Part shown: piece by piece, positions 5,612-13,588 of the stretch
How positions within the stretch are numbered: the first letter of the stretch is position 1
Layout: every line of letters begins with the position of its first letter
DNA from: Deltaproteobacteria bacterium
GTDB lineage: Bacteria > Desulfobacterota > GWC2-55-46 > S146-80
Assembly: GCA_015492305.1 (NCBI GenBank)
Contig: WGFJ01000012.1
Span: 1-44,274, forward strand
Direction: 5' to 3'
Length of the DNA stretch: 44,274 nucleotides
Made by a program: the position numbers and the translations under genes
Notes under the pieces: generated by a model
Told to the model about the DNA's origin: nothing
What the model saw: only the letters and a program-made list of their open reading frames with translations
Database searches by the model: none

Positions 5612-8506
5612 TCATTCCTCCCCTATGACAGAGACCCTGTCGCCGCCACCTTCCCTCACCCTCTCTACCTCCTCTTCAAGCCTCTCAAGGAGGGTCTGCC
5701 TCTCCTTTCCATCCACGGGAAAACCACCTATCCCGATGCTCGCGCTGAACCTGAACCCCCCTTCACCTGCAAACCTTCCGATGATCAACCTCAACTTCTC
5801 ACCCACCACCCTGGCAGGCTTCTTTGGTGTATCGGGAAGGAGGAGGACAAAGACCGAGTCCTCATACCTTGCCAGGATGTCGGCCTTCCTTATGTGCTTT
5901 TCTATAAGGGCTGAGAGGGACTTTATCGCCTCTTCCCCCTTTGCCGTTCCATACCTCTCAACATAGCTATCAAAGCGGTCTATCCCTATCATCATGAGGG
6001 AGAAGGTCCCCCCATAGCGCTTGCCCCTCGCTATCTCGTGATCTATCCTCCTCTTTATATACCGCCTGTTGAAGGTGTTCGTCAAGGGATCTATCATCTT
6101 TGCCCTCGAGGGGTAGAGCATCTCAAGCCTTCTCACCTCTTCCAGTATGTCATCGACACTGAACCCCTTCTTTACCACACCCGCAATGTCACCCCTGAGC
6201 CTTCCTGCCTCTTCAGGTGTGAGGTCCTTTGCAGTATAGACGATTATGGGGATATCCTTGGTATCCGGGTTCCTCCTCAGACCGTCTATCACCTGGAACC
6301 CGTTCATCCCGGGCATCATGAGGTCGAGTATTATGAGGTCCACATCCTTGGTTGTGGCCATCTCAAGGCCCTCCTTGCCTGTGGATGCCTTGAGCACACC
6401 GAAGCCCTCTTTCTCCAGTATCCCTGAAAGGAGGGCCTGTGTCTCAGGGTCGTCATCTATGATGAGGATGGTGAAGCTACCCCTCTTCACCCTGTCTATG
6501 AAACTTATGGACTGGAGGGCATTCAGGAGGGTTTCCTTGTCCACGGGCTTTGTGATGTACTCACAGGCCCCGAGGCTGAAACCCTTCTTCATGTCATCAA
6601 GGGCAGAGACTATGACAACAGGGATCTCCCTGGTCTCTGGATCCTTCTTCAGTTCTCTCAACACCTCCCATCCATCCCTGTCAGGGAGCATGAGGTCAAG
6701 GGTTATGGCAAAGGGCTTGAGCCTCCTTGCCATCTCAAGGGTCTCCTCCCCGCTGCCCACCCCGACCACACTGTAGCCCGACCTCCTGAGGTAGGACATG
6801 ATGAGCTCCCTCAACTGGTCGTTGTCCTCCACAACGAGGACAAGGGGGTACTCCTCATGTATGGCTGCAGGCTTTACCTTTATCTCCCTCTTCACAGGTG
6901 GAACACCCTCTGCCGGTATGGTGAAGGTGAAGGTAGAGCCCTTGCCGTATTCGCTCTCCACCCAGATCCTGCCGCCATGGAGCTCCACAAGCCTCTTGGT
7001 CACAGAGAGGCCAAGGCCTGTCCCCTCTATGCTCCTCCTCTCCTCATCACCTATCCTCTCAAACTCCATCCACACCTTGGGAAGGTCCTCCTTCCTTATA
7101 CCTATCCCTGTGTCCTTCACGGATACAACAAACTCGCCCCCCTCAAGCCATGCCTCCACATCCACCCTCCCGCCATCCCTGTTGAACTTCACCGCATTGG
7201 TCAGGAGGTTGAGGAGTATCTGTCTCAGCTTTGCCCTGTCGCCCTTTATTGAGCCCCTGTAATCGACCCTGGAGTGGATCTCTATATCCCTTGCCTCTGC
7301 CACGGGCCTGACGGTGGTGATGGCCTGCTCTATGAGGGGCTCAACCTCCACATCCTCCTTGTTGAGCTCCATCCTCCCTGCCTCGATCTTCGATATATCG
7401 AGGATGTTGTTTATGAGCTGGAGGAGGTGCTTTCCACTTGTGTGGATGTAGTTCACATACTCCATCTGCTTGTCATTGAGGGGGCCAAAGGCCTGCCCCT
7501 TCAGGAGTTCTGAAAAGCCTATCACCGAATTGAGGGGTGTCCTCAGTTCATGGGATACGGTGGCAAGGAACCTGTTCTTCGTCTCATTTGCCTTCCTCAA
7601 TTCTGCATTGACAAACTCAAGCTCAAGCCTCCTCCTCTCAAGCTCCTCATTTGCCTGACGGAGGTGTTCGGTCCTCTCCATGACCTTCTTCTCAAGGTCC
7701 CTGTAGGACTCCTCCAGTTGATCGGCCATTATGTTGAACTCGGAGGCCATTACTCCTATCTCATCCATCTTCTCAACGGGTATCCTCTTCGAGAGGTCAC
7801 CAGAGGCTATGGCCCTTGCTATCTCTATCACCTTGTTGAGCCTCCCCCCTATCTCCCTTGATATGAAGAGGGTTGCAAGGAAGCCGCTGACCGCTCCCAG
7901 CACGGTAAGGAGGAGGAGGGAAAAGAGATACCTCTCCGTTCTGCCCTTTATCCCTTCCCTTGCCTTCTCCATGAGGTCCATTTCATGTTCCACAACCTTT
8001 TCGGCCAGGGCAGAGAAGCTATCAAACCTCCTCAACTGGATCCCGAGGGCCACATCCATTGCCTCCCCGTACCTTCCCTCCTTCAGGGCGGGGATGATCA
8101 CCTCCTCCCTCGTCTTCTTGAAGTCCTCCCAAAGGGTCTTTATCTCCTCAAGGAGCTCCCTTGTCCGGGGATCGATCCACTCCATGCCGAGGAGGGAGCC
8201 TATCTGACCGTCTATGCTCTTTGTGGTCTCTTCCACCTCCTTGAGGTAGGATGAGAAATCCCCCTTCTTCAGCAGGGTTGTGAGGAGTGCATTCCTCACC
8301 TTGTACAGATCCTTTGTGAGACATGAAACGGCCGATACGGCTGCCACCCTCCTCTGGTAGAGGAAGTCGGTGTAGTCCTCCATCCAGAAGGCGTAGAAGT
8401 AGCTCGTTCCGGCAAGGAGGAGGTAGAGGGTCACACCCCCTGTGAAGGTGAGGAAGAGCTTGTCCCTCACCTTCAGGGTCTTCATCTTTTTCACGAATCC
8501 TTCCAT
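5612..8506 (-). CDS. Membrane hybrid histidine kinase: four-helix sensor-HAMP-HisKA-HATPase-REC-REC-degenerate GGDEF
   Basis: Two TM segments; HAMP (DEIGVMASEFNIM); H-box SHELRTPLN; N, G1 and G2 boxes; receivers ITLDLMLP and IILDLMMP; C-terminal DPLTNTFNRR...RKADILARYEDSVF. Alternative start at 8485. Confidence 0.9.
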   Translation of the reverse strand: MEGFVKKMKTLKVRDKLFLTFTGGVTLYLLLAGTSYFYAFWMEDYTDFLYQRRVAAVSAVSCLTKDLYKVRNALLTTLLKKGDFSSYLKEVEETTKSIDGQIGSLLGMEWIDPRTRELLEEIKTLWEDFKKTREEVIIPALKEGRYGEAMDVALGIQLRRFDSFSALAEKVVEHEMDLMEKAREGIKGRTERYLFSLLLLTVLGAVSGFLATLFISREIGGRLNKVIEIARAIASGDLSKRIPVEKMDEIGVMASEFNIMADQLEESYRDLEKKVMERTEHLRQANEELERRRLELEFVNAELRKANETKNRFLATVSHELRTPLNSVIGFSELLKGQAFGPLNDKQMEYVNYIHTSGKHLLQLINNILDISKIEAGRMELNKEDVEVEPLIEQAITTVRPVAEARDIEIHSRVDYRGSIKGDRAKLRQILLNLLTNAVKFNRDGGRVDVEAWLEGGEFVVSVKDTGIGIRKEDLPKVWMEFERIGDEERRSIEGTGLGLSVTKRLVELHGGRIWVESEYGKGSTFTFTIPAEGVPPVKREIKVKPAAIHEEYPLVLVVEDNDQLRELIMSYLRRSGYSVVGVGSGEETLEMARRLKPFAITLDLMLPDRDGWEVLRELKKDPETREIPVVIVSALDDMKKGFSLGACEYITKPVDKETLLNALQSISFIDRVKRGSFTILIIDDDPETQALLSGILEKEGFGVLKASTGKEGLEMATTKDVDLIILDLMMPGMNGFQVIDGLRRNPDTKDIPIIVYTAKDLTPEEAGRLRGDIAGVVKKGFSVDDILEEVRRLEMLYPSRAKMIDPLTNTFNRRYIKRRIDHEIARGKRYGGTFSLMMIGIDRFDSYVERYGTAKGEEAIKSLSALIEKHIRKADILARYEDSVFVLLLPDTPKKPARVVGEKLRLIIGRFAGEGGFRFSASIGIGGFPVDGKERQTLLERLEEEVERVREGGGDRVSVIGEE

Positions 8507-9063
8507 AGGGCCTCCATCTTAAAGGTCTCTGCTCCAAGCAATCCCTTGACAGTCTCCTTGAGGGTCTCCATATCTATGGGCTTGATGAATATGCCATCCA
8601 CAAGGCCTCTCAGGTCCTTAACCTCTTCAGGGTAGGCCGTCACCACAAGGATCCTCATGTCCCTTGTGATCTCCATTGACCTCACCTTCCTTATGACCTC
8701 CTTCCCATCGACCCTTGGCATCTTTATATCGGTAACAAGGACATGGGGCCTCCACTCCCCTATCCTTATGAGGGCCTCGTAGCCATCCCTGGATGCCTCC
8801 ACCTCACAGTCTTTAAGGATGCCAAGCCCATCCACAAGCATGCGAAGGGTGAAGGGATCGTCCTCCACAACAAGGATCCTCTTTCTGGAGGGGATGGCAT
8901 TGCATTGGGCAAGGAACCTCTTGAACTCCTCCCTGGGTATCCTGTAGTGGCCCCCAGGGGTAAGGATGGCCCTGAGCTTGCCCTCAGAGATCCACCTCTT
9001 GATGGTGTTGACGGTAACGCTGAAGTACTGGGCTACCTCACCGGTGGTAAGGAACCGTTTCAT
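8491..9063 (-). CDS. Response regulator with N-terminal excisionase/BldC-like (MerR-type) HTH and C-terminal receiver
   Basis: FLTTGEVAQYFSVTVNTIKRWISEGKLRAILTPGGHYRI, then RILVVEDD...VTDIKMP...IKP. Confidence 0.88.
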   Translation of the reverse strand: MKRFLTTGEVAQYFSVTVNTIKRWISEGKLRAILTPGGHYRIPREEFKRFLAQCNAIPSRKRILVVEDDPFTLRMLVDGLGILKDCEVEASRDGYEALIRIGEWRPHVLVTDIKMPRVDGKEVIRKVRSMEITRDMRILVVTAYPEEVKDLRGLVDGIFIKPIDMETLKETVKGLLGAETFKMEALWKDS

Positions 9064-9099
9064 GTTTTTACACTTTTGACGGTTTTGATAGTTTGGTCA
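9064..9099. repeat. Four tandem imperfect 9-bp direct repeats (consensus GTTTTGACA), probable operator
   Basis: gtttttaca|cttttgacg|gttttgata|gtttggtca, abutting the ATG of the HTH-REC gene. Confidence 0.75.
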
Positions 9100-9124
9100 T
9101 ACTACAGTTCCCCTGCCCTGTCAA
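9096..9124 (-). promoter_or_regulatory. Putative sigma70 promoter of the HTH-REC/kinase/receiver operon
   Basis: TTGACA-17 nt-TATGAC on the minus strand; the -10 overlaps the promoter-proximal repeat. Confidence 0.55.
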
Positions 9125-9146
9125 GGAAATAAAAGGGAGAAAGGGA

Positions 9147-9923
9147 TCAGAAGAAGGGGTTGTTTTCCCTCTCCTCGCCAACGGTTGTGGCAGGCCCGTG
9201 TCCCGGGAGGAGGATGGTGGGGTCAGGGAGGGTGAGGATCCTCTCCCTTATAGACCTGAGATGGATGGGGTAGAGTGAAGGGGGGTTACTCCTCCCTATG
9301 GAGCCTGCAAAGAGGGTGTCCCCTACAAGGCAGACCCCATCTGTAAGGTAGGAGAAGGAGTCCTGTGTGTGGCCGGGTGTGGCAAGGCACCTTACCAGCA
9401 TCCCCCCTGCCCTCACCTCCTGCCCATCCACAAGGGACCTTCCCCTGTAGACAGGGACAGAGCACTCCTTGAGGACCCTTTCAAGACCTCCGGTATGGTC
9501 ACCATGGCCGTGGGTGAGGAAGATGGCCCTCAGGGTTATACCCCTCTCCCGAAGGGCATCGAGTACAGCCTCAGGGTTGCAGGCCGTATCGATGAGGATG
9601 CCATCACCCCCCTTGAAAAGGATGTAGGCCTTCACCTCGTAGCCACCGATGTAGCCCCTTATGGTGACAAGCCTCCTATCCACCTCAGGGGGCAGGGGGG
9701 CCGGCTGGTAGCTTCCCTCTGCAATGGCAAGGAGCCTATCGGCCTTCAGACCCAGGACCCTGGCAATGGCCATCACCTCCTCCCTTCGAGGCCTCTTGCC
9801 GGAGAGGATGGCAAGGAGCCTCTCCCTGGGGATGGCTGTATCGGAGGAGAGCCTTTCCCTGTCGATGCCGAGCCCTGAAAGGGCCTTCTCCACTATGTCC
9901 GAGAACTCGTCTTCAAGGACCAC
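9147..9923 (-). CDS. MBL-fold metallo-hydrolase (glyoxalase II-like) with N-terminal XRE-like HTH
   Basis: THGHGDH, TPGHT, GDTLFAGSIG, PGHG motifs; start reassigned to GTG 9923 (GGAGG SD) because the longer ORF overlaps the cytochrome gene. Confidence 0.85.
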   Translation of the reverse strand: MVLEDEFSDIVEKALSGLGIDRERLSSDTAIPRERLLAILSGKRPRREEVMAIARVLGLKADRLLAIAEGSYQPAPLPPEVDRRLVTIRGYIGGYEVKAYILFKGGDGILIDTACNPEAVLDALRERGITLRAIFLTHGHGDHTGGLERVLKECSVPVYRGRSLVDGQEVRAGGMLVRCLATPGHTQDSFSYLTDGVCLVGDTLFAGSIGRSNPPSLYPIHLRSIRERILTLPDPTILLPGHGPATTVGEERENNPFF

Positions 9924-9943
9924 TTTAACCCTCCGGAAGTATG

Positions 9944-10675
9944 TCACCTTACCCTCCCCATGAGGCTGAGCACATAAGATGTGAGGTGCCACCTCTCCTC
10001 CTCTGTGAGTGAGACGGCAAAGGATGGCATGGTTGTTCCATCCACACCGATGGTTATGGAGAGGTATATGTCCTCCACCCTTGGACCCCTGTTTATGATG
10101 CCATAGGTGAAGTTTGCAGGCCTGACAGGCCTGCCCCACACATCAAGGAGTAACCCAGCAGCCTTGCCACCACCCCTGCCATCCACACCATGACACACGG
10201 CACACCTCGTCCTGTACAGGGCCTTCCCCTTCTCGATGGATTCAGGGGTTCCAACAAACCCCGGGACCTTCACCTCCTTTACCAGGGGCCTTCCTGGACT
10301 CTCCTCCTCCCACCTGTCTGAGAAGGTCTTTATGTAGGCTATAACCGCATCCTTTTCGGGCTCTGGAAGGAGTCTGAAGGAGGGCATGGATGTGAGGGGA
10401 AGTCCCTGATCAATCACCCTCTTGAGATCCGAATCAAGGGGAAGGGAACCCCTTGGTGTGGACTTGAACTTGAATATCCCGGTTGTGAAGTCCCTGGGCT
10501 TCACGATGAGGTCCCTGGCGGCAATGCCATTTCCATCACCTTTCTCCCCGTGACAGCCCACACAGTACCTCTCGTAGACCTCCCTGCCCATTGCCACTTT
10601 TGACGGCTGTCCATCTACAGGGATGGGCCGCATCAGAAGGAAGGCAAGGAACACAAAGGGGCCTCTCCATCTCAT
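9944..10675 (-). CDS. Exported dihaem cytochrome c
   Basis: Signal peptide; CVGCH and CAVCH, each followed by a MPSF distal Met; ATG 10675 behind GGAGGTG. Confidence 0.9.
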   Translation of the reverse strand: MRWRGPFVFLAFLLMRPIPVDGQPSKVAMGREVYERYCVGCHGEKGDGNGIAARDLIVKPRDFTTGIFKFKSTPRGSLPLDSDLKRVIDQGLPLTSMPSFRLLPEPEKDAVIAYIKTFSDRWEEESPGRPLVKEVKVPGFVGTPESIEKGKALYRTRCAVCHGVDGRGGGKAAGLLLDVWGRPVRPANFTYGIINRGPRVEDIYLSITIGVDGTTMPSFAVSLTEEERWHLTSYVLSLMGRVR

Positions 10676-10712
10676 CTCCCCACCTCCTGCAATGGAGTTA
10701 TCCAGGGTGATA

Positions 10713-10728
10713 CGCAAGAGGCATACCT
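10713..10728 (-). promoter_or_regulatory. Possible sigma54 (-24/-12) promoter for the cytochrome c gene
   Basis: AGGTATG-cctc-TTGCG with exact GG-N10-GC spacing; deviates from the TGGCAC consensus. Confidence 0.4.
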
Positions 10729-10744
10729 TCCACCCAAACAGGGA

Positions 10745-10773
10745 TTGACAAGGTAGAGGGGTTAGGATAATCT
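10745..10773 (+). promoter_or_regulatory. Putative sigma70 promoter of the pnt(-trehalose) operon
   Basis: TTGACA-17 nt-TAATCT about 30 nt upstream of GTG 10805. Confidence 0.65.
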
Positions 10774-10804
10774 TACCATAAAGACCTCAAAAAGGGGAAA
10801 CATT

Positions 10805-11929
10805 GTGACCGTAGGTGTTCCCAAGGAGAAAAGGGAAGGGGAGAAGAGGGTTGCCCTCATCCCTGACCATGTAAAGACCCTCACCTCCATGGGCATGGAT
10901 GTCCTTGTGGAGAAGGGGGCTGGAGAAGGGGCCTTCTTCACGGATCGCGCCTACGAGGAGGCAGGGGCGAAGGTGGTGGACGGGGTCTTCGGTGCAGGGA
11001 TCATCCTCAAGGTGAACCCCCCTGAAGAGGAAGAGGTGGAGGGGCTTGAGGAGGGAAGTCTCCTTGTGGGCTTTCTCAATCCCTTTGGCAGGCCCTCCCT
11101 CATAAAGAGGCTCTCCGAGAGGAAGGTAACGGCCCTGGCTATGGAACTCATCCCGAGGATAAGCCGTGCCCAGGCGATGGATGCCCTTTCATCCCAGGCC
11201 TCTGTGGCTGGTTACAAGGCGGTCCTCATGGCCGCTGACTCGATACAGAAGTTCTTCCCCATGCTCACCACCGCTGCAGGGACCATACCACCGGCAAGGG
11301 TCTTTGTCATAGGTGCCGGGGTTGCAGGGCTTCAGGCAATAGCCACGGCAAGGAGGCTTGGCGCCATTGTGGAGGCCTTCGACATAAGGCCTGAGGTTAA
11401 GGAGGAGGTCGAAAGCCTTGGTGGCAGGTTCGTGATGGTGGAGGCACAGGAAGAGGTGAGGACCGAGGGTGGCTATGCAAAGGAGGTATCGGAGAGGACA
11501 AAGGAGAGGGAAAGGGAGGTCCTGGCAGAGCACATAAAGGCCGCTGATGCGGTGATCACAACGGCCCTTACGGCGGGCAGGAAGGCGCCCATCCTCATAA
11601 CAGAGGAGATGGTCTCTTCCATGAAACCCGGCTCTATCATCATAGACCTTGCTGCAGAAGGTGGGGGCAACTGTGAACTCACAAGGCCAGGGGAGACCGT
11701 CACCCACGGGGATGTGAAGGTCATCGGTCCTGTCAACCTGCCATCCACCATGGCCCACCACGCAAGCAGGATGTACGGCAAGAACCTCCTCTCCCTCTTG
11801 AGGGAGATCATCAAGGACGGGCAGGTGGTGATCGACCTTGAGGATGAGGTCATAGGGAGTATATGCGTGGTCTACAGGGGAGAGATAAGGAACAGGAGGG
11901 TCCTTGAGGCCCTTGAAAGGAGGGAGTGA
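10805..11929 (+). CDS. pntA: NAD(P)+ transhydrogenase subunit alpha part 1 (dI)
   Basis: GVPKE...EKRVAL, PRISRAQAMDALSSQ, GAGVAGLQA, GGYAKE, GGNCE. Confidence 0.95.
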   Translation: MTVGVPKEKREGEKRVALIPDHVKTLTSMGMDVLVEKGAGEGAFFTDRAYEEAGAKVVDGVFGAGIILKVNPPEEEEVEGLEEGSLLVGFLNPFGRPSLIKRLSERKVTALAMELIPRISRAQAMDALSSQASVAGYKAVLMAADSIQKFFPMLTTAAGTIPPARVFVIGAGVAGLQAIATARRLGAIVEAFDIRPEVKEEVESLGGRFVMVEAQEEVRTEGGYAKEVSERTKEREREVLAEHIKAADAVITTALTAGRKAPILITEEMVSSMKPGSIIIDLAAEGGGNCELTRPGETVTHGDVKVIGPVNLPSTMAHHASRMYGKNLLSLLREIIKDGQVVIDLEDEVIGSICVVYRGEIRNRRVLEALERRE

Positions 11930-12219
11930 TGGGGATCGTAGACAGCCTCTTTGTCTTTGTCCTGGCCATGCTCGTCGGCTTTGAGGTGATCACAAAGGTC
12001 CCGCCAACCCTTCACACCCCCCTCATGTCAGGGGCGAATGCCATATCAGGGATCACCATCGTGGGGGCCCTCCTCGTTGCAGCCCATTCCGACTCACCCC
12101 TTACAGAGGTCATAGCCTTCGTTGCCATCGTAATGGCAACGGTGAATGTGGTGGGAGGCTTCCTTGTAACGGACAGGATGCTACAGATGTTCAGGAAGGA
12201 GACCCGGAAGAAGGCATAG
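11926..12219 (+). CDS. pntA: NAD(P)+ transhydrogenase subunit alpha part 2 (membrane)
   Basis: VPPTLHTPLMSGANAISG, NVVGGFLVTDRMLQMF. Confidence 0.95.
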   Translation: MMGIVDSLFVFVLAMLVGFEVITKVPPTLHTPLMSGANAISGITIVGALLVAAHSDSPLTEVIAFVAIVMATVNVVGGFLVTDRMLQMFRKETRKKA

Positions 12220-12220
12220 C

Positions 12221-13588
12221 ATGAAAGCCCTTGTAGAACTCATCTACCTCCTTTCTGTGATACTCTTTGTTGCAGGCCTCAGATACCTCAACTCCCCTGC
12301 AACGGCAAGGAGGGGAAACCTCCTTGCATCCGTGGGGATGGCCCTTGCCATCGCAGCAACCCTTGCCGGAAAGGGGATCAGCCACCTGTGGATCATCCTC
12401 GCAGGTCTCCTTGCCGGGTCCATCATAGGGGCTGTGGCTGCAAGGAAGGTGAAGATGACCGCCATGCCCCAGATGGTAGGGCTCCTGAACGGACTTGGTG
12501 GTGGCGCTTCTGCCCTTGTGGCTACAGGGGAGTTTGTGAGGCTGAGCCCTTCCATCCCCCTCGATACGGTGGTCACCATCATCCTCAGCCTCCTCATAGG
12601 TGGTGTCACCTTCACGGGAAGCCTCGTTGCCTTCGGTAAGCTCCAGGGCCTTGTGAAGGGGACCCCCACAGTCCTCCCCCTCCACAGGGCTGTAACAATC
12701 CTCCTTTCCATCGCCTTCCTCCTCCTCTCCTTCTCCCTCCACATCTCACCCCTTGCTGTCTTCACCACCATGGCCATCATATCCCTCATCCTCGGGGTCC
12801 TCCTCGTCATACCCATAGGTGGGGCCGATATGCCCGTTGCCATATCACTGCTCAACTCCTTCTCCGGTCTTGCCGCAAGCGGGGCAGGGTTCGTCCTTAA
12901 GAACAACATGCTCATCGTTGCAGGTGCCCTTGTCGGGGCGGCAGGGATGATCCTCACCTTCATCATGTGCAGGGCCATGGGAAGGTCCCTGCTCCATGTC
13001 CTCTTCGGTGCCTTCGGGGGGAAGGAGGAGCTTGCAGAGGAGGCAGGGGAAAGGCGTGTGAGGTCCATAGATGTTGAAGAGGCGGCCATGATCCTTGCCT
13101 ATGCCAGGTCCGTCATCATAGTGCCTGGATACGGTATGGCCGTTGCCCAGGCCCACCATGCCGTAAGGGAGCTTGCAGATGAGCTTGAGGCAAGGGGTGT
13201 GGAGGTGAAGTTCGCCATCCACCCTGTGGCAGGCAGGATGCCGGGCCACATGAATGTCCTCCTCGCAGAGGCAAATGTCCCCTACTCGAAGCTCTACGAC
13301 ATGGACGACATAAACCCTGAGTTTGAGAGGACCGATGTGGCCCTTGTCATAGGGGCAAGCGATATAGTGAACCCGGCAGCACGCCACAAGAAGGGAAGCC
13401 CCATATACGGCATGCCCATACTGGAGGTGGACAGGGCAAGGCAGGTCATCGTGATCAAGAGGAGCCTGAGCCCTGGCTTCTCAGGGGTGGAGAACGAGCT
13501 CTTCTACAACCCCAAGACGATGATGCTCTTTGGCGGAGCCAGGGATGTCGTCCAGGAGCTCATAAAGGAGGTGAAGAGGCTTGACTGA
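12221..13588 (+). CDS. pntB: NAD(P)+ transhydrogenase subunit beta
   Basis: MTAMPQMV, GGADMPV, PGYGMAVAQA, HPVAGRMPGHMNVLLAEA. Confidence 0.96.
   Translation: MKALVELIYLLSVILFVAGLRYLNSPATARRGNLLASVGMALAIAATLAGKGISHLWIILAGLLAGSIIGAVAARKVKMTAMPQMVGLLNGLGGGASALVATGEFVRLSPSIPLDTVVTIILSLLIGGVTFTGSLVAFGKLQGLVKGTPTVLPLHRAVTILLSIAFLLLSFSLHISPLAVFTTMAIISLILGVLLVIPIGGADMPVAISLLNSFSGLAASGAGFVLKNNMLIVAGALVGAAGMILTFIMCRAMGRSLLHVLFGAFGGKEELAEEAGERRVRSIDVEEAAMILAYARSVIIVPGYGMAVAQAHHAVRELADELEARGVEVKFAIHPVAGRMPGHMNVLLAEANVPYSKLYDMDDINPEFERTDVALVIGASDIVNPAARHKKGSPIYGMPILEVDRARQVIVIKRSLSPGFSGVENELFYNPKTMMLFGGARDVVQELIKEVKRLD

Follow-up and report, generated by a model that had tools for sequence, protein, structure and literature searches.

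A promoter-anchored array of 9-bp repeats as the predicted self-operator of a BldC-like response regulator

What reads the four head-to-tail 9-bp repeats that lie between a promoter and the start codon of a response-regulator gene? The repeats occupy positions 9064-9099 on the (-) strand of a 44,274-nt stretch of Deltaproteobacteria bacterium DNA (assembly GCA_015492305.1, contig WGFJ01000012.1; the whole stretch is called the window here), directly ahead of a 190-codon gene (8491-9063, (-)) whose product carries an N-terminal winged helix-turn-helix (HTH) resembling Streptomyces BldC, followed by a receiver. The answer that we favour, with a probability of roughly two in three, is that this protein is a phosphorylation-controlled, BldC-like response regulator that would repress its own two-component operon, with up to four protomers coating the -10 element and the transcription start (+1). 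The repeats are most likely the regulator's own on/off switch, because relatives in several phyla show this arrangement too.

The array, its promoter and its conservation

Read on the coding strand from 9099 to 9064, the 36 nt before the ATG consist of the 9-mers TGACCAAAC (9099-9091), TATCAAAAC (9090-9082), CGTCAAAAG (9081-9073) and TGTAAAAAC (9072-9064), the last of which abuts the start codon. These are the reverse complements of the four units named in the original prediction, and direct reading bears out its claim of four phased repeats, with units that are imperfect. Tandem Repeats Finder describes the array as period 9, 3.4 copies and 72% matches, and an exact-seed repeat search of the leader detected no repeat. 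A palindromic MerR-type operator was considered and rejected, no inverted repeat having been found in the leader.

The array stands out in its genome. In a whole-genome scan with the column consensus of the 4 × 9 arrangement, 96 of ∼1.93 million windows, forming 22 clusters, scored as high as this array; judged by eye, the remaining 21 clusters consist of period-3 purine- or pyrimidine-rich stretches. A weight matrix was also built from 43 phased units, collected by script from the upstream regions of orthologues only and with this locus excluded. Applied to both strands of the 1.94-Mb genome, it ranked the regulator's own leader first, both as a three-unit (29.7 bits) and as a four-unit (31.1 bits) array.

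Immediately upstream, a -35-like hexamer TTGACA can be read directly at 9119-9124 (-), and orthologues carry TTGAC[ACG] with a 17-nt spacer before their arrays. The putative -10, TATGAC (9096-9101, (-)), follows the -35 after 17 nt, overlaps repeat unit 1 and was selected by a best-promoter scan with 10 of 12 matches. An alternative -10, TAGTAT (9104-9099), would leave a spacer of only 14 nt, and a stricter simple promoter scan calls neither hexamer. Which of the two hexamers is the putative -10 mentioned at the outset is ambiguous.

Conservation was examined in 40 related genomes of the same class, all uncultured 'Deltaproteobacteria/Thermodesulfobacteriota' metagenome-assembled genomes. An orthologue with 33-50% identity was identified in 25 of them (one cut by a contig end, one masked at its N-terminus); the remaining 15, from three families, gave receiver-level matches only. 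Closer relatives, with 75% and 68% identity, are known as proteins. All 25 loci have a same-strand open reading frame (ORF) directly downstream of the orthologue, which carries sensor domains (4HB_MCP, HAMP, HisKA, GAF, PilJ) in 14; the downstream fragments at the other 11 are truncated and gave zero Pfam matches at 1e-5. Motif pairs exactly 9 bp apart are present in 17 of the 25 upstream regions (33 pairs, counting the own locus and one near-duplicate), compared with at most 12 loci for any other spacing from 5 to 20 and 4 loci on the opposite strand; across 300 shuffles the count averaged 2.0 loci and never exceeded 6. Such pairs occur in six of the eight families (f1 1/1, f2 1/1, f3 3/3, f5 4/4, f10 7/9, f8 1/5, f11 0/1, f12 0/1), and the longest arrays among the closest relatives have five (L002), six to seven (L003) and four (L026) units. 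This is supported by a motif-free self-similarity test, in which each period was compared with block shuffles over 81 non-redundant upstream regions: period 9 gave z = 11.6 and the next, period 6, gave 5.0. The conserved 9-bp period upstream of orthologues, which the original prediction had put forward as a check, is present. A metagenome scan added three full-length relatives (L115-L117) among 80 of 307 confirmed loci. The motif is present in L116, unclear in L115 and ambiguous in L117; the recognition helix of L116 is identical to that of the protein described here, and its TATCAAAAR units are also the same.

The position of the arrays was assessed at 39 loci with a recognisable TTGAC[ACG]-16/18-TAnnnT promoter and a 9-bp pair. 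In 36 of these, the first unit starts within -12 to +15 of the end of the -10 (median +3), the exceptions being L003 (-27, where the array extends backwards across the spacer), L057 (+24) and L111 (-47). Between the last unit and the start codon, by comparison, lie anywhere from 0 to 151 nt. Since the former distance is steady and the latter is not, the arrays are tied to the promoter rather than to the ribosome-binding site, which favours an operator acting at the DNA level over an element acting in RNA. An array lying over the -10/+1 region of a near-consensus promoter in turn points to repression.

A scan of named genome records extended the orthologue set to Acidobacteriota, Rokubacteria/Methylomirabilota and others. 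Acidobacteriota-like loci (67-68% G+C) show TTGACA-17-TATATT followed by CGTAAAAAN/CGGAAMNWN units at 9 bp, clearly so in four of five. In Rokubacteria-like loci (∼70% G+C) the recognition helix differs, with Pro in place of Asn19 and Thr/Ser at residue 23. There, the TRTMAMAA motif was found in none of seven loci, and three GAAGAAWYC units at 9-bp pitch lie just past the promoter in 10/10. Among the groups that bear the motif, C occupies unit column 4 in 9 of 15 units from loci with Arg at the position of BldC Arg30, and in 12 of 96 from loci with Lys there. The operator sequence thus changes with the regulator's helix at a fixed 9-bp pitch, as expected if the regulator reads the repeats.

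In several Rokubacteria-like loci (L085, L087, L093, L097, L101, L104, L110 and L114) the three repeats encode the called N-terminus, VKNPKNPKNS. The repeats begin 2 nt into the called GTG, and in L095 they precede the start that was chosen. This group may have miscalled start codons, or the repeat may also be coding.

The regulator and the readings of its leader

The 190-codon ORF has only one possible start codon, and its assignment as a response-regulator gene is supported by Pfam and NCBIfam domains, conserved receiver residues and a confident AlphaFold2 model (pLDDT 89.8, pTM 0.71) in which the HTH is followed by a short linker and then the receiver. The proposed order, an excisionase/MerR-type HTH N-terminal to a receiver, agrees with the Pfam matches: HTH_17 (PF12728) at residues 4-54 (8902-9054, (-); 54.5 bits, cutoff 27) and Response_reg (PF00072) at residues 63-172 (8548-8877, (-); 58.5 bits, cutoff 30.2). 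The HTH also matches TIGR01764 'excise' (56.5 bits, cutoff 28.8), with Pfam MerR just below its cutoff (27.5 against 28.2 bits) and Pfam Tn916-Xis below its own (17.2 against 22.9 bits).

The resemblance of the HTH to BldC, also part of the original prediction, was confirmed at the level of both sequence and fold. A phmmer search of all PDB sequences with the HTH alone placed BldC at the top (6ama, E 9e-7; 6amk, 1.3e-6), followed by a cobalamin-binding regulator, RacA and two excisionases. For an AlphaFold2 model of the HTH only (residues 1-59, pLDDT 92.3), the top seven Foldseek matches are BldC chains (TM 0.72-0.78), the best with a root-mean-square deviation of 0.9 Å over 49 columns and 43% identity; RacA, Pukovnik Xis (rank 10), MerR-family proteins and Tn916 Xis (rank 17) follow. 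Foldseek with the full-length model returned receiver structures only. In the available part of the BldC structural study, the wing (His46, Arg47, Arg48) reads a narrowed A/T minor groove and the head-tail contact is formed by Phe21, Trp31 and Leu43 (PMC5859096). When the contact and oligomerisation residues given there were mapped onto our protein through an alignment of the HTH with BldC, six of nine were found to be retained (F21 as F14, T27 as T20, R30 as R23, W31 as W24, H46 as H39, R48 as R41) and three altered (K26 to N19, L43 to P36, R47 to Y40).

The receiver has a complete phospho-acceptor set (E67/D68, D112, T142, K161), and D68, D112, T142 and K161 are invariant in 23 orthologues. 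Asp112 (codon GAT at 8728-8730, (-)) is the predicted phospho-acceptor, and the fold matches include DivK, RR468 and Spo0F, among others. As would be expected of a response regulator, a gene for a cognate histidine kinase lies in the same operon: the downstream hybrid sensor kinase gene (5612-8506, (-)), with the architecture 4HB_MCP-HAMP-HisKA-HATPase-REC-REC-GGDEF, overlaps the regulator gene by 16 nt.

We infer from these observations that the protein binds the repeats, that it does so in a head-to-tail mode, and that it acts as a repressor under the control of phosphorylation. In the proposed mechanism, the regulator gene would be translationally coupled to that of its cognate kinase, and the four repeats, running from inside the -10 region to the ATG, would serve as the regulator's own operator. 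Each 9-bp unit would hold one HTH protomer, all in a single orientation and head-to-tail as in BldC, so that a short nucleoprotein filament covers the -10, the transcription start and the early transcribed region. The bound protein would repress the operon because a filament at -10/+1 blocks RNA polymerase, and phosphorylation of Asp112 by the kinase would alter the ease of filament assembly. As to the direction of that effect, we lean only slightly towards phosphorylation promoting assembly, and hence negative feedback, over its promoting release, because phosphorylation-promoted binding is the common rule for response regulators on direct repeats and holds for most studied receivers.

Several findings weigh against this reading. 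The array is imperfect, with neighbouring units identical at 6/9 positions and a Tandem Repeats Finder score of just 34. TATGAC is a poor hexamer with a weak last position, and the weakness of the -10 makes the position of +1 a guess. Eight of the 25 class loci have no pair at the thresholds used, including four of five in f8 and the single loci of f11 and f12, and because the relatives are linked by kinship and are not independent, the z-scores and counts given above overstate the evidence. The association of Arg or Lys with C or A in the unit comes from very few lineages that are independent of one another. For the outgroups, the period-9 triples were counted without a shuffle control of their own, and because the Rokubacteria-like repeats lie inside called coding sequence, codon-level repetition (KNP KNP) is an alternative for them. 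In the protein, Leu43, at the heart of the head-tail contact in BldC, is replaced by Pro. The NCBIfam BldC model (NF033787) gives 50.6 bits, under its cutoff of 77, so that the protein would work like BldC but, by the NCBIfam rule, falls outside the BldC family; the membership implied at first is not supported. Finally, the only characterised MerR-type response regulator that we found, HnoC of Shewanella oneidensis, is described as a tetramer on palindromes, not direct repeats (PMC9938897).

The strongest alternative retains binding and repression and reverses the sign of phosphorylation: the unphosphorylated protein would silence the operon, and phosphorylation would break the oligomer and derepress it, giving positive feedback. 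This is possible, though clearly the less probable reading. Most orthologues have a near-consensus -35 and a 17-nt spacer, as would suit a strong promoter whose default state is off. BldC binds DNA without any partner domain (PMC5859096, as far as its available part goes), and in the accessible descriptions of HnoC, a MerR-type repressor, the unphosphorylated tetramer binds and phosphorylation releases it (PMC9938897, PMC12471899). The palindromic sites of HnoC, however, make it an imperfect precedent for direct repeats, and the reversed sign also runs against the behaviour of most studied receivers noted above.

It is unlikely that the repeats, while a real and conserved operator, belong to another protein, such as a small HTH_17 protein or a nucleoid or global factor, with the regulator's targets lying elsewhere. 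Three further HTH_17 ORFs are encoded in the genome, and architectural proteins can be drawn to A-rich phased sites. However, the recognition helices of these three ORFs are unrelated and the TPGGH wing is missing from them, the 9-bp pitch is the same as the footprint of a BldC protomer, and the unit sequence changes along with the recognition helix of the regulator. Moreover, the arrays accompany the regulator gene across families and phyla while its upstream neighbour genes vary.

Less likely still is a role in RNA, in which the repeats would form an unstructured A-rich leader for translation independent of a Shine-Dalgarno (SD) sequence, or would be bound by a small RNA or an RNA chaperone. 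The leader is rich in A and shows no stronger folding than shuffled sequences (z -0.95), and the array abuts the start codon at this locus, L026 and L094. As originally proposed, there is no SD sequence: the five core words GGAG, GAGG, AGGA, AAGG and GGGG are all missing at -18 to -4 of the regulator ATG. Such starts are not rare here, a crude start-codon rule giving an SD in 550 of 863 long ORFs and none in 313. Against a role in RNA, the arrays hold their distance to the -10 and not to the start codon, units at L002 and L003 overlap the -10 or spacer and so cannot all be transcribed, and an Rfam search of the leader gave zero matches at E <= 0.1. For this gene alone, the leader, lacking an SD sequence, may nevertheless have some secondary role. 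That an AT-rich promoter-proximal stretch merely looks periodic by chance or composition is very improbable: the imperfect units, low repeat score and failed exact-seed search would fit, but the array ranks first genome-wide by a matrix that excluded it, period 9 is specifically enriched across relatives, and the same arrangement occurs in genomes of 67-71% G+C.

Other candidate sites and neighbouring genes

The expectation that GTTTTGACA arrays would mark a regulon was not upheld: the orthologue-matrix scan of both strands of the 1.94-Mb genome found no second array of at least three units, and two-unit candidates are few. The runner-up array (25.4 bits, C23:23724) was dismissed, as it lies inside RHS-repeat coding sequence. 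The surrounding region (C23:21200-26200, locus L031) encodes the AT-rich tip of a 770-aa RHS/YD-repeat protein and then a small membrane ORF; the two are probably a toxin tip with the matching immunity gene.

With a matrix from the closest subgroup (14 units, own locus excluded), 12 two-unit matches of at least 15 bits were obtained in this genome, two of them in the regulator's own leader (22.4 and 22.0 bits). The best site outside the leader, C140:62778-62795 (-) (L032 2479-2496), scores 22.6 bits, above the own leader, and is flanked by a LuxR-type gene and a TPR-repeat gene at the contig end, opposite in orientation to the latter. Another, C37:26115-26132 (-) (L201 2116-2133; 15.8 bits), sits ∼100 nt upstream of a GT2+PilZ cellulose-synthase-like gene, where it overlaps a ksgA-like gene at its stop codon, and is accompanied by two further TGTAAA-type words that are not strictly phased; a bcsA-like GT2+PilZ gene is present in only 5/40 relatives. 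As targets, both sites are leads only.

Among five complete relatives, the two-unit pattern occurs 3-7 times per genome, against 1-5 times for a reversed-pattern control, and is found at the regulator's own promoter in all five. Extra two-unit sites lie just past the promoters of P-type ATPase operons in two genera (L195, L198) and of lipoprotein/NHL-like/multihaem-cytochrome operons, again in two genera (L196, L200), these loci coming from relatives G034, G037 and G036. This suggests a small regulon in the Lys-type subgroup. No sites were found at the homologues of the P-type ATPase, lipoprotein and 193-aa genes in the genome studied here.

The GGDEF domain of the kinase has a degenerate active-site motif (RYEDSVF, where GG[DE]EF is expected, from the translation) and retains an RxxD motif (RKAD) five residues upstream of it. 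For these reasons it is more likely a module that binds cyclic di-GMP (c-di-GMP) than a cyclase.

On the other side of the regulator gene, an intergenic region of 83 nt separates it from an HTH_19 + MBL-fold hydrolase gene (9147-10139, (-)). The hydrolase ORF (330 aa) overlaps the end of a dihaem cytochrome c gene (9944-10717, (-)) by ∼200 nt, and its Pfam domains begin only at residue 84, so that its real start is probably further downstream. On the (+) strand at 9064-9103, the repeat units hold the -35-like words TTGACA, TTGACG and TTGATA, and the simple scan calls a promoter-like TTGACG-16-CATACT (9076-9103) antisense to the upstream gene. The unit sequence itself probably gives rise to this call as a by-product, since such a site is missing from the units of orthologues. 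Further along, three consecutive ORFs (374, 97 and 455 aa) at 10805-13588 (+) resemble, judged from their translations alone, the alpha-1, alpha-2 and beta subunits of a proton-translocating NAD(P) transhydrogenase.

Novelty and comparison with known systems

The HTH-before-receiver order, initially described as the reverse of the usual one, is indeed unusual among studied regulators but common in databases: HTH_17 and Response_reg occur together in 69 of 72 homologues (E <= 1e-10) and in all 30 of the nearest Atlas clusters. These proteins are named 'response regulator' or 'excisionase family DNA binding protein' in their sources, and no published study of HTH_17-receiver proteins was found in the literature searched, which leaves out most subscription journals. 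What is new here, as far as sequence comparison can tell, is that a BldC-type head is linked to a receiver and comes with a conserved 9-bp array anchored to the promoter. This would provide a predicted operator for a large family that databases label with no more than those two names, and a rule for finding targets, namely phased 9-mers just after the -10. Tentatively, HTH_17-receiver proteins could be widespread, unstudied regulators that act through phosphorylation-gated nucleoprotein filaments. The receiver would then decide whether the BldC-type heads polymerise head-to-tail, and the number of units (2 to 7 in the loci seen) would determine how steep the response is and at what threshold it begins, with the operator co-evolving with one or two recognition-helix residues in at least three phyla. 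In this vent-type host, such a switch might tie a hybrid kinase that binds c-di-GMP to its own expression, and perhaps also to a cellulose synthase of the PilZ type.

Classical MerR proteins have a related HTH, and MerR-family structures appear lower in the Foldseek list. They differ in that the protein described here has no coiled-coil dimerisation helix, no effector domain and no palindrome, its promoter spacer is 17 nt rather than the 19-20 nt of MerR promoters, and its array lies downstream of the -10 instead of in the spacer. Excisionases (lambda Xis, Tn916 Xis and mycobacteriophage Pukovnik Xis) share the fold class of this HTH, and Xis proteins form cooperative filaments on closely spaced direct sites. 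Here, by contrast, the gene has a kinase, an MBL-fold hydrolase and a cytochrome c for neighbours, and the proposed role is in transcription rather than recombination. Neither an integrase nor an attachment site was found beside the gene, the ORFs at 6000-12500 being the kinase, MBL hydrolase, cytochrome c and transhydrogenase, with the rest of the window not searched for integrases.

In the OmpR/PhoB family, the phosphorylated receiver drives winged helices onto head-to-tail direct repeats, and autoregulation of the operon is common. The order there is receiver before winged helix, and the helix belongs to another winged-helix family, whereas the HTH precedes the receiver here; OmpR/PhoB repeats are also ∼10-11 bp long and usually two in number, and the proteins are mostly activators bound upstream of the -35.

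HnoC reportedly also carries its HTH at the N-terminus. According to the parts of the reports available, it represses signalling genes from sites that overlap the -10 and transcription start, and its oligomerisation is controlled by phosphorylation (PMC9938897, PMC12471899). The likeness is by description only: both are MerR-type response regulators with sites over the -10 and start, the sites of the present regulator being predicted.

The closest likeness is to BldC of Streptomyces (PDB 6AMA, 6AMK), the best match in sequence and fold and likewise a MerR-like/Xis-like winged HTH without a coiled coil. In the available part of its structural study, a BldC protomer occupies 9 bp with the consensus AATTXXXX(C), the bracketed C pairs with a G that Arg30 recognises within a YpG step, and arrays comprise two to four 9-bp direct repeats; there are four in the smeA operator, and four subunits assemble on a 36-mer (PMC5859096). 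The head-to-tail binding of BldC to short direct repeats, on which the original prediction drew, is borne out by this account, and the operator predicted here likewise has four units. Shifted by four bases, the unit consensus becomes AAAA-N-TRT-M, so that both consensus sequences have an A/T tetrad, four bases and then C; in ours, the tetrad and four bases are followed by C or A and then the A of the next unit, which gives a TG step on the other strand. BldC has a large regulon and acts as both repressor and activator (PMC6428758, in its available part), whereas the array described here was found only at the protein's own promoter. A further difference is that BldC is a 68-residue stand-alone protein without a known signal input, and the present protein has 190 residues, a C-terminal receiver and a cognate kinase. 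To our knowledge, no signal has been described that controls the assembly of BldC, in which a bare winged helix regulates by head-to-tail polymerisation. A BldC-type head wired to a receiver and kinase would therefore offer a directly testable model of how phosphorylation could gate filament formation.

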